A DNA stretch of 64,000 nucleotides. Source: Escherichia coli. GTDB taxonomy: Bacteria > Pseudomonadota > Gammaproteobacteria > Enterobacterales > Enterobacteriaceae. Location: the NCBI RefSeq assembly GCF_003018255.1, contig NZ_CP027441.1; one strand, given 5' to 3'. The notes below the pieces were generated by a model. That model did no database searches. It worked only from the letters and a program-made list of their open reading frames with translations, and was not told where the DNA came from. Below, one piece after another: positions 11,454-12,818 of this stretch. The position numbers and the translations under genes were made by a program. Each line of letters begins with the position of its first letter. Position 1 is the stretch's first letter.

Positions 11454-12818
11454 ATGCAAAAAGACGACGATAAAGGTTTTGTTCTGTTTGAAATTCTGGC
11501 CGGACTGATTGTGATCGGTATCGCCACACCAATGATTTATTCAGAAATTGAAAACTGGCTGAATGAGCAGCTTTACCAGAGTGCTGCATATCATGCAGAT
11601 GCCTACAATACCGCAGCCAGAAACTATATTGCCGACAACAATGCCCGTCTGCATAGCGGCAGCCTTCCGGCAAATTTCACGGCTGATGATCTGATTCGTC
11701 AGGAATATCTGAAACAGGGGTTTAACCATTCTCCCTTTGGTCAGAGTTATATCACCGGTATCCGCCGTAACCAGACCACCGGGCGTCTGGAAGCCCTGAC
11801 CTGCTCAACTGGAGGGCAGACAATCAAAGAAGAAGGGCTGCGTAGTGTGGCGGGTCAGTTGCCGGGGCTGGGTGGATTTATCAGCAAAAATGGAACGGCA
11901 ACAGGCGCATTCGGAGCCTGGACAGATAAACCGGGAGACTACGGACTTACCTGTTCGACAGGTCACATCGCCGTCGTCATGAGCGGTGATGACCTGCAGG
12001 AAAGTGACCGTCTCTACCGTTTTCAGGTAGCAGGTCGTCCTGAACTGAATCAGATGCATACCGCAATCAATATGGGCGGGAATAACATAAACAACACCGG
12101 CAATATCAATGGTCAGAGTGCCACACTGAAAGGTGATATTACGAGTGAAGACGGCTGGCTAATCACCAGAAACAATAAGGGATGGATGAATATCACACAT
12201 GGTGGTGGATTCACCATGACAGACAGCCAGTGGATACGCGCGGTTAATGGCAAAGGCATCACAACCACCGGGGAAATCAAAGGCGGAAAAGTCAGTGGTG
12301 GTACAGTCCGGTCTGACGGTCGTCTTTCAACCGGGGAGTATTTACAGCTTGATAAAACAGCTACGGCAGGCACAAAGTGTGCACCGGACGGACTTGTAGG
12401 CCGCACCAGTACAGGGGCCATACTTTCGTGCCAATCCGGTATGTGGGCAGGTTTTGAATCCTACCCTGTCGGAAGCCCTATACCGTGGCCATCAGCCACC
12501 CCTCCACAAGGCTACCTGGTGATGAACGGGCAGTCATTTTCATGTTCCCGGTATCCTCAGCTTGCCCGTGCTTATCCCGGGTGTAAGCTGCCGGATTTGC
12601 GCGGTGTTTTTATCCGTGGCTGGGACAACGGACGTGGGCTGGATGGAGATCGGAACAGACATCTCCTGAGTTATCAGGCCGATCAATCCGGTGTCTATCA
12701 TGAGCGTGGGGGATGGCTGAAAGGGCATCACAGCGGTATGGCTTACTGGGCCCAGGGAAGCACAACGGAAATGCGCCCCAAAAACATTGCCTTTAACTAC
12801 ATCGTCAAAGCAAGCTGA
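11454..12818 (+). CDS. pilV: minor pilin / tip adhesin PilV with variable C-terminus
   Basis: 454 aa from MQKDDDKGFVLFEILAGLIVIGIA pilin-like N-terminus; two in-frame CAATCCGGT sites (Gln-Ser-Gly) in the 3' third; C-terminal 120 aa has phage tail-fibre collar-like motifs (LPDLRG, RPKNIA, YIVKA). Confidence 0.8.
   Translation: MQKDDDKGFVLFEILAGLIVIGIATPMIYSEIENWLNEQLYQSAAYHADAYNTAARNYIADNNARLHSGSLPANFTADDLIRQEYLKQGFNHSPFGQSYITGIRRNQTTGRLEALTCSTGGQTIKEEGLRSVAGQLPGLGGFISKNGTATGAFGAWTDKPGDYGLTCSTGHIAVVMSGDDLQESDRLYRFQVAGRPELNQMHTAINMGGNNINNTGNINGQSATLKGDITSEDGWLITRNNKGWMNITHGGGFTMTDSQWIRAVNGKGITTTGEIKGGKVSGGTVRSDGRLSTGEYLQLDKTATAGTKCAPDGLVGRTSTGAILSCQSGMWAGFESYPVGSPIPWPSATPPQGYLVMNGQSFSCSRYPQLARAYPGCKLPDLRGVFIRGWDNGRGLDGDRNRHLLSYQADQSGVYHERGGWLKGHHSGMAYWAQGSTTEMRPKNIAFNYIVKAS

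Follow-up and report, generated by a model that had tools for sequence, protein, structure and literature searches.

The variable C terminus of PilV, a pilus protein encoded by an Escherichia coli plasmid, is homologous to the tips of phage tail fibres. We analysed a 64,000-nucleotide (nt) stretch of contig NZ_CP027441.1 (assembly GCF_003018255.1; hereafter the window), which belongs to the pO113 family of large plasmids of Shiga toxin-producing E. coli (STEC; 99.8-100% identity over 2.8 kb). PilV sets which cells I-complex plasmids enter, both in liquid and in the gut. An initial annotation of the window, made from the sequence alone, had likened the end of PilV to the collar domain of tail fibres, and this idea was borne out by Pfam, PHROGs, searches of the PDB, tblastn against phages and Foldseek. 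The likeness is confirmed as true homology, far beyond chance. It is confined to one exchangeable cassette of 125 residues, and in this plasmid PilV is locked in its collar form.

A tail-fibre tip at the end of PilV

The gene and the parts on which the comparison turns are listed below; predicted local distance difference test (pLDDT) scores are from AlphaFold2 (AF2).

11454-12818 (+): pilV coding sequence, 454 amino acids (aa) plus stop, from the translated open reading frame (ORF); annotated as pilV in pO113 (NC_007365.1)
11553-12440 (+): PilV constant region, Pfam Shufflon_N, aa 34-329 (E 1.4e-60 and 1.2e-44)
12428-12446 (+): sfx 19-mer GTGCCAATCCGGTATGTGG, the Rci crossover site at the constant/cassette boundary, an exact match to the consensus
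12441-12815 (+): collar-type variable cassette, PilV aa 330-454 (125 aa), homologous to phage tail-fibre tips
12471-12614 (+): N-terminal collar segment, profile match to Pfam Collar (PF07484); pLDDT 84-95 over cassette aa 11-50

The Pfam Collar model matched PilV aa 340-387 over its full length (positions 1-57; E 6.7e-12, 45.6 bits). Among PHROGs, the best match of the cassette was phrog_523, 'tail collar fiber protein' (E 1.3e-42), with a second collar fibre family at 1e-18; 20 further families were matched, 18 of which are tail proteins. Searches of the PDB recovered the tip of T4 gp37 (2xgf_A), by phmmer at E 1.2e-19 and by a profile of 51 sequences at E 4.3e-31, the collar segment being ~55% identical to chain residues 26-88 (63 residues). 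Profile matches extended to 9cuy_c, a 554-aa short tail fibre (E 1.3e-28, collinear up to its final residue), and, with the 51-sequence profile, to T4 gp12 (E about 1e-7). When 50,697 phage records were searched by tblastn, 520 contained matches to the cassette, the best of them covering 94-100% of it at 41-48% identity. These matches sit at the extreme 3′ end of tail-fibre genes in P2-like, lambdoid (HK106 stf), Aeromonas and P1-like phages, and the phage homologues often run into a tail-fibre assembly (tfa) gene.

Structure prediction, which the initial annotation had proposed comparing with tail-fibre tips, gave the same answer. The AF2 model of the cassette monomer (mean pLDDT 66) was confident over aa 11-50 and the last strand, and Foldseek against the PDB ranked 2xgf_A first (E 6e-6). 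A resemblance that arose by chance or by convergence from low-complexity, Pro/Gly-rich motifs has the shortness of the Pfam model (57 positions) as its only support. It is refuted by E-values of 1e-12 to 1e-42 across four independent libraries, by a match that is collinear and bipartite and includes the terminal strand, and by the agreement of Foldseek; we give it practically no weight.

The phage-like part has a sharp boundary. PHROG and PDB searches with the constant region (aa 1-329) returned no match at all, which identifies the phage-derived part as precisely the shufflon cassette and rules out an extension of the fibre likeness into repeat-looking stretches of the constant region such as NMGGNNINNTGNINGQ. 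Phage similarity sets in about 5 codons 3′ of sfx, which here encodes CQSGMW. The crossover site likewise lies at the constant/cassette junction in plasmids pCT, R64, pTA142-2 and pE16EC0406-2. No NCBIfam model matched PilV or its cassette.

The rest of the protein is a Shufflon_N constant region behind a prepilin-type leader, MQKDDDKG/FVLFE (the slash marking the break at KG/FVLFE), which with its Glu at +5 looks like a type IV prepilin signal. pilV is the last gene of a pil operon that is whole and intact upstream of it. Translation starts at ATG 11454, with GGAGGG just upstream, giving a gene identical in extent to the RefSeq pilV of pO113. The initial annotation had instead counted 521 aa from TTG 11253, a start that would overlap the prepilin-peptidase gene; its residue numbering has to be replaced by that of a 454-aa protein with the cassette at aa 330-454. 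The motifs it had quoted (PWP, GYLVMNGQ, YPQLA, LPDLRGVFIRGWDNG and RPKNIAFNYIVKA) are all present in the + strand translation that ends at 12818.

Topology and conserved residues of the cassette

Our alignment (A1) divides the cassette into a collar segment, a central excursion and a terminal strand. The collar segment (cassette aa 7-79) conserves P9, G11, P13, W16 and P17, followed by LPDLRG.FIRGWD.GRG.D and, at its end, Q79. The central excursion is hypervariable in both sequence and length, and the terminal strand is nearly invariant (E.RP[KR]N[IV]AFNYIV[KR]A). The parts beyond the collar segment, and two cysteines within it, are as follows.

12678-12767 (+): variable excursion, cassette aa 80-109, ADQSGVYHERGGWLKGHHSGMAYWAQGSTT, in the position of the gp37 needle and head; low AF2 confidence
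12768-12815 (+): C-terminal return strand EMRPKNIAFNYIVKAS, which closes the collar; aligns to the ends of 2xgf_A (223-240), 9cuy_c (289-304) and T4 gp12
12543-12545 and 12582-12584 (+): two Cys codons, cassette C35 and C48, from the column analysis of A1

Both the collar segment and the returning strand (E.RP.N..NYI.K) align collinearly to 2xgf_A (26-88 and 223-240), 9cuy_c and T4 gp12, and AF2 models the return (E.RPKNIAFNYIVKA) as a strand at 119-123 with a pLDDT of ~89. The cassette has the topology of gp37, in which a collar segment is followed by an excursion outwards and then by a strand back to the collar. According to the published description of gp37 (PMC12609058), its chain runs out from the collar, builds the needle and head, and then turns back to where it started, a path that fits the way in which the first and last parts of the PilV cassette align to the start and end of the gp37 fragment.

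The two proteins are alike in more than the collar. gp37 returns with the same terminal strand (..NIAFNYIV..) and, as PilV does, stands at the distal, cell-recognizing end of a filament. They differ in what lies between the matched stretches: chain residues 89-222 (~134) in gp37 against ~30-38 residues in PilV. The HxH motif coordinates iron in gp37, where this stretch makes up a head domain and a long needle with seven such sites, whereas PilV has a conserved HH. The collar module is carried on a fibre shaft in gp37 and on a pilin in PilV, and gp37 requires chaperones, whereas none is encoded in the PilV window.

Every one of the 11 PilV-clade sequences has HH in the excursion, at cassette aa 96-97 (nt 12726-12731), and no phage sequence does; the phage homologues have HxH immediately past the collar. 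It is possible that HH provides a metal site in place of the phage HxH. The C35/C48 pair is likewise specific to PilV: 8 of the 11 clade sequences have it (those of E. coli, Salmonella and Citrobacter), every phage homologue lacks it, and it might form a disulfide as the protein folds in the periplasm. HH excepted, no part of the cassette diverges more within the PilV clade than the excursion does, and we presume aa 80-109 to be its distal binding surface.

An exchangeable module, locked in the window plasmid

Comparison with other plasmids places the collar cassette among the ends that a shufflon can offer. R64 can give PilV seven C-termini, which lie behind as many sfx sites (adhesins A, A', B, B', C, C' and D'). 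Its PilV is like that of the window in Shufflon_N, in an sfx junction encoding CQSG.W and in its position in the pil operon, and differs in that switching is intact and the C-termini are not collar-like, whereas the window PilV is fixed and collar-like. None of the seven R64 C-termini matched a hidden Markov model (HMM) of the collar; all scored below 0, which excludes the classical cassettes as cryptic collar domains. The IncK plasmid pCT also has seven sfx sites and seven C-termini, five of them in common with R64, followed by an intact rci. One of its cassettes (locus L002, 4988-5376) is a collar cassette with 94.6% aa identity to that of the window. The IncK2/Z plasmid pTA142-2, with three sfx sites, encodes a complete 389-aa Rci, and the PilV that it expresses is the collar form; in its relative pE16EC0406-2, where rci is also intact, the same segment is inverted and an 85-aa non-collar end is expressed. 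A Salmonella plasmid carries a collar pilV that is 66% identical and followed by an rci-type integrase. Judged from these arrangements, the collar cassette is one of several Rci-switchable PilV ends in related plasmids.

A more phage-like version occurs in Enterobacter hormaechei plasmid pKM98_p3 (L007, 2520-3956), where the collar end of pilV has HxH and a longer insert. That gene lies in the middle of its pil operon, no recombinase gene is annotated within the 3.5-kb flanks, and the junction reads SCVNRVW as against the sfx-encoded SCQSGMW. This locus suggests that PilV and a collar can be fused without any shufflon and, with its HxH, that collars were captured at least twice independently. 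In shufflons, silent collar cassettes are annotated 'phage tail protein' or 'tail fiber protein' or are left unannotated, and one Salmonella fragment is called 'Shufflon protein B'; such inconsistent labels may be mistaken for prophage content in plasmids.

Phages provide a parallel. The P1-like IncY phage-plasmid pEH09-18-41_2 from E. coli (L006, 1-5400) has ten collar cassettes in both orientations, arranged around one tfa gene and a gene for a 190-aa Cin-like serine recombinase. Many 140-220-aa 'phage tail protein' database entries also look like invertible cassettes, the genomic context having been checked for L006 only. Like the PilV cassette, the units of P2-like, lambdoid (HK106 stf) and P1-like fibres are extreme C-terminal and are exchanged by inversion. 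They have longer hypervariable inserts with HxH, a neighbouring tfa gene and a serine recombinase, whereas the PilV cassette is bounded by sfx, is served by the tyrosine recombinase Rci and has two extra Cys in E. coli and Salmonella. Two inversion systems that are unrelated in mechanism thus exchange units of one and the same module family. The idea, put forward in the initial annotation, that inversion-switched phage fibres and shufflon adhesins share receptor-binding modules holds for L006, pCT and pTA142-2; it does not extend to the R64 cassettes, and the window plasmid itself no longer switches. No Cin homologue was found in the window (best tblastn E 0.14).

What remains of the shufflon in the window lies directly downstream of pilV.

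12824-13081 (-): silent alternative PilV cassette, 85 aa, QQSGVRKNNISDALFFDYSAC...CCKLKVNTP plus stop, from translation; stranded by the deletion
13063-13081 (-): degenerate sfx GCAACAATCCGGTGTCAGG, 4 mismatches, right arm kept and spacer replaced
13069-13234 (+): 3′ remnant of rci, with Rci aa 350-389 at 13112-13231, then a stop

Relative to pTA142-2 (L004), the window has a clean 1358-bp deletion. Positions 11000-13078 correspond to L004 2060-4138 (98.7%) and positions 13069-14948 to L004 5497-7375 (98.4%), with L004 4139-5496 absent. The junction is a 10-bp overlap, CACCGGATTG at 13069-13078, comprising the right arm of an sfx and the edge of its spacer. The deletion took a third cassette together with Rci codons 1-349; tblastn with the 389-aa Rci of pTA142-2 matched aa 350-389 only, at 97.5% identity. 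That the recombinase is missing from pO113 was noted by Cottell 2011 (PMC3377399). The window holds one canonical sfx (12428-12446), no second canonical copy in inverted orientation and no intact rci. As only that one site is left and rci is deleted but for its last 40 codons, the collar form is the sole PilV that this plasmid can make. PilV is locked, and the switching implied by the initial annotation's wording, a 'current' PilV form, does not take place here. The same arrangement is kept in all of ~87 near-full-length matches. The deletion has one end point within the spacer of an sfx and its other in the 3′ portion of rci, at a sequence with a weak likeness to sfx (in pCT, ...CAGCGTATTGTTGC...). 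These positions suggest an aberrant Rci-mediated event in which Rci removed its own gene.

The stranded 85-aa cassette is not collar-like (collar-HMM score below 0) and has no detectable similarity to the cassettes of R64 or pCT. It occurs in 113 plasmids and is the expressed pilV end in the IncK2/Z plasmids CP088549.1 and NZ_CP027324.1; throughout pO113-family records it is left unannotated. A 37-nt imperfect inverted repeat, 73% complementary, pairs 11909-11945 in the pilV constant region with 12878-12914 in this silent cassette. It has no shufflon counterpart and no evident function, and is probably due to chance.

Given the dead shufflon, the collar cassette might itself be a functionless, decaying relic, as the loss of rci and the stranding of the neighbouring cassette behind a degenerate sfx would lead one to think. 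The evidence already disfavours this reading, which we regard as very improbable: the reading frame is uninterrupted and continuous with that of pilV, the pil operon upstream is intact, and the cassette is 98-100% conserved in ~190 plasmid records. In comparison with the pCT copy, the rate of nonsynonymous substitution (dN) is 0.032 and that of synonymous substitution (dS) 0.80, a dN/dS of 0.039 that points to strong purifying selection. This ratio, together with ~408 plasmid records carrying the cassette at >=90% (that is, at least 90%) aa identity, marks it as a maintained module and not debris.

Between the shufflon remnant and traF lie three conserved ORFs, at 13246-13566 (+), 13658-13978 (-) and 14238-15059 (+). 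All records viewed label the first two 'hypothetical protein'; 13658-13978 resembles a small membrane protein. For the third, pO113, pCT and pTA142-2 likewise give 'hypothetical protein', and pE16EC0406-2 names the corresponding gene product TraE. With no PHROG match and no Tfa similarity, all three were ruled out as a tail-fibre chaperone.

Possible function in recipient choice

The account that we favour, and consider quite probable as a whole, is that PilV ends in a miniaturised phage tip of 125 residues, fused in frame to the constant region at sfx, which would act as a trimeric pilus-tip adhesin binding the recipient cell. Starting from the observations above, we infer the trimer, the outward HH loop and the ligand. 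The collar-type tail-fibre fold is obligately trimeric in phages, and by analogy the PilV collar cassettes would form the same intertwined trimer. In that trimer the 30-residue excursion would face outward, its HH perhaps coordinating a metal on the threefold axis, and could bind a sugar epitope of the recipient's lipopolysaccharide (LPS) core or another outer-membrane receptor, and this contact would stabilise mating pairs in liquid. The LPS core is the probable ligand, LPS being bound both by related phage tips and by other variants of PilV. Three PilV subunits may cap the type IVb thin pilus as CofB does. CofB, which forms the tip trimer of a type IVb pilus (PMC10191384), and TcpB are minor pilins that resemble PilV in having a large C-terminal non-pilin domain at the pilus tip; no sequence relationship to PilV was found. 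A tip trimer like that of CofB would accommodate a fibre-tip fold made of three chains. The direction of transfer was most likely from phage to plasmid: the module is ubiquitous in phage fibres and present in only some PilV lineages.

Several observations weigh against this account. A construct of three cassette copies joined by 30-residue Gly/Ser linkers, modelled with a 13-row alignment, reached a mean pLDDT of only 38.8, which leaves the trimer to be argued from analogy; in the monomer, too, the middle of the cassette (aa 56-115) was unconfident. The cassette has none of the HxH repeats that organise the phage needle. No Tfa homologue or chaperone was found in the window (tblastn E >1), and many phage homologues adjoin one. 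LPS binding, finally, has been demonstrated experimentally for R64 PilV variants only, and since these are not collar-like it cannot be transferred to the window PilV by homology.

Other roles for the cassette can be set against recipient choice. The collar form of PilV might serve as an adhesin, with locking reflecting selection for that adhesin. The window belongs to large STEC virulence plasmids, its arrangement is kept by all of the ~87 near-full-length matches, and the pCT paper mentions speculation that I-complex thin pili act in adhesion and biofilm formation (PMC3377399). A 94-100% identical cassette is, however, a switchable option in ordinary IncK and IncK2/Z resistance plasmids, and the experimental work on PilV variants found in the literature searched is all on recipient specificity. 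We think it unlikely that adhesion is the better explanation, and the two roles are mutually compatible. Somewhat less likely still, in our estimate, is that the collar is a cap for folding and trimerisation only, with specificity residing elsewhere in PilV or in a tip partner, as with CofJ on CofB. Such a cap would accord with gp37, whose collar has a structural role and whose head domain makes the receptor contact (PMC12609058), with the shortness of the PilV excursion (30 aa) and with the binding of a secreted effector by CofB (PMC10191384). Yet the cassette is the only part that differs among shufflon variants of different recipient range, and an excursion that diverges most within the PilV clade, HH excepted, is the pattern expected of a specificity loop.

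A broader reading, which we put forward tentatively and with more doubt than belief, is that PilV and phage tips draw on one pool of receptor-binding modules exchanged between phages, with their serine invertases, and plasmids, with Rci. Collar PilV would then be a chaperone-independent mini-trimer that recognizes the epitope of some P2-, P1- or T4-type phages, fixed in pO113 by aberrant self-deletion of Rci. Were this true, phage-resistance mutations in the recipient would also block plasmid entry, and vice versa.

Our literature search found no paper linking PilV and collar domains besides Milman 2023 (PMC9881135). That study described a PilV-phage tail collar fusion at one locus (UCP91044.1, CP084655.1), put forward the hypothesis that a phage tail domain had been repurposed for recipient specificity, and said that earlier-described shufflon proteins share only the PilV domain (PMC9881135). 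The fusion has the same PF04917 + PF07484 architecture as the window PilV, the two being likened by their domains, and the protein database already lists this architecture among its precomputed domain annotations. What is new here is that the collar module is common in I-complex plasmids (IncK pCT, IncK2/Z, the pO113 family and a Salmonella plasmid), with a fixed version in Enterobacter. Also new are the exact cassette boundaries, the reduced architecture, the PilV-specific HH and Cys, and the reconstruction of the locking.

These plasmids carry extended-spectrum β-lactamase genes (pCT) and STEC virulence genes (pO113). To our knowledge, no structure of any PilV cassette exists; homology to a solved phage tip supplies a first structural template for one and suggests aa 80-109 as a specific binding loop. 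The plasmid and phages would pick their target cells with modules of one kind, and the two may compete for, or be jointly blocked at, the same receptor.

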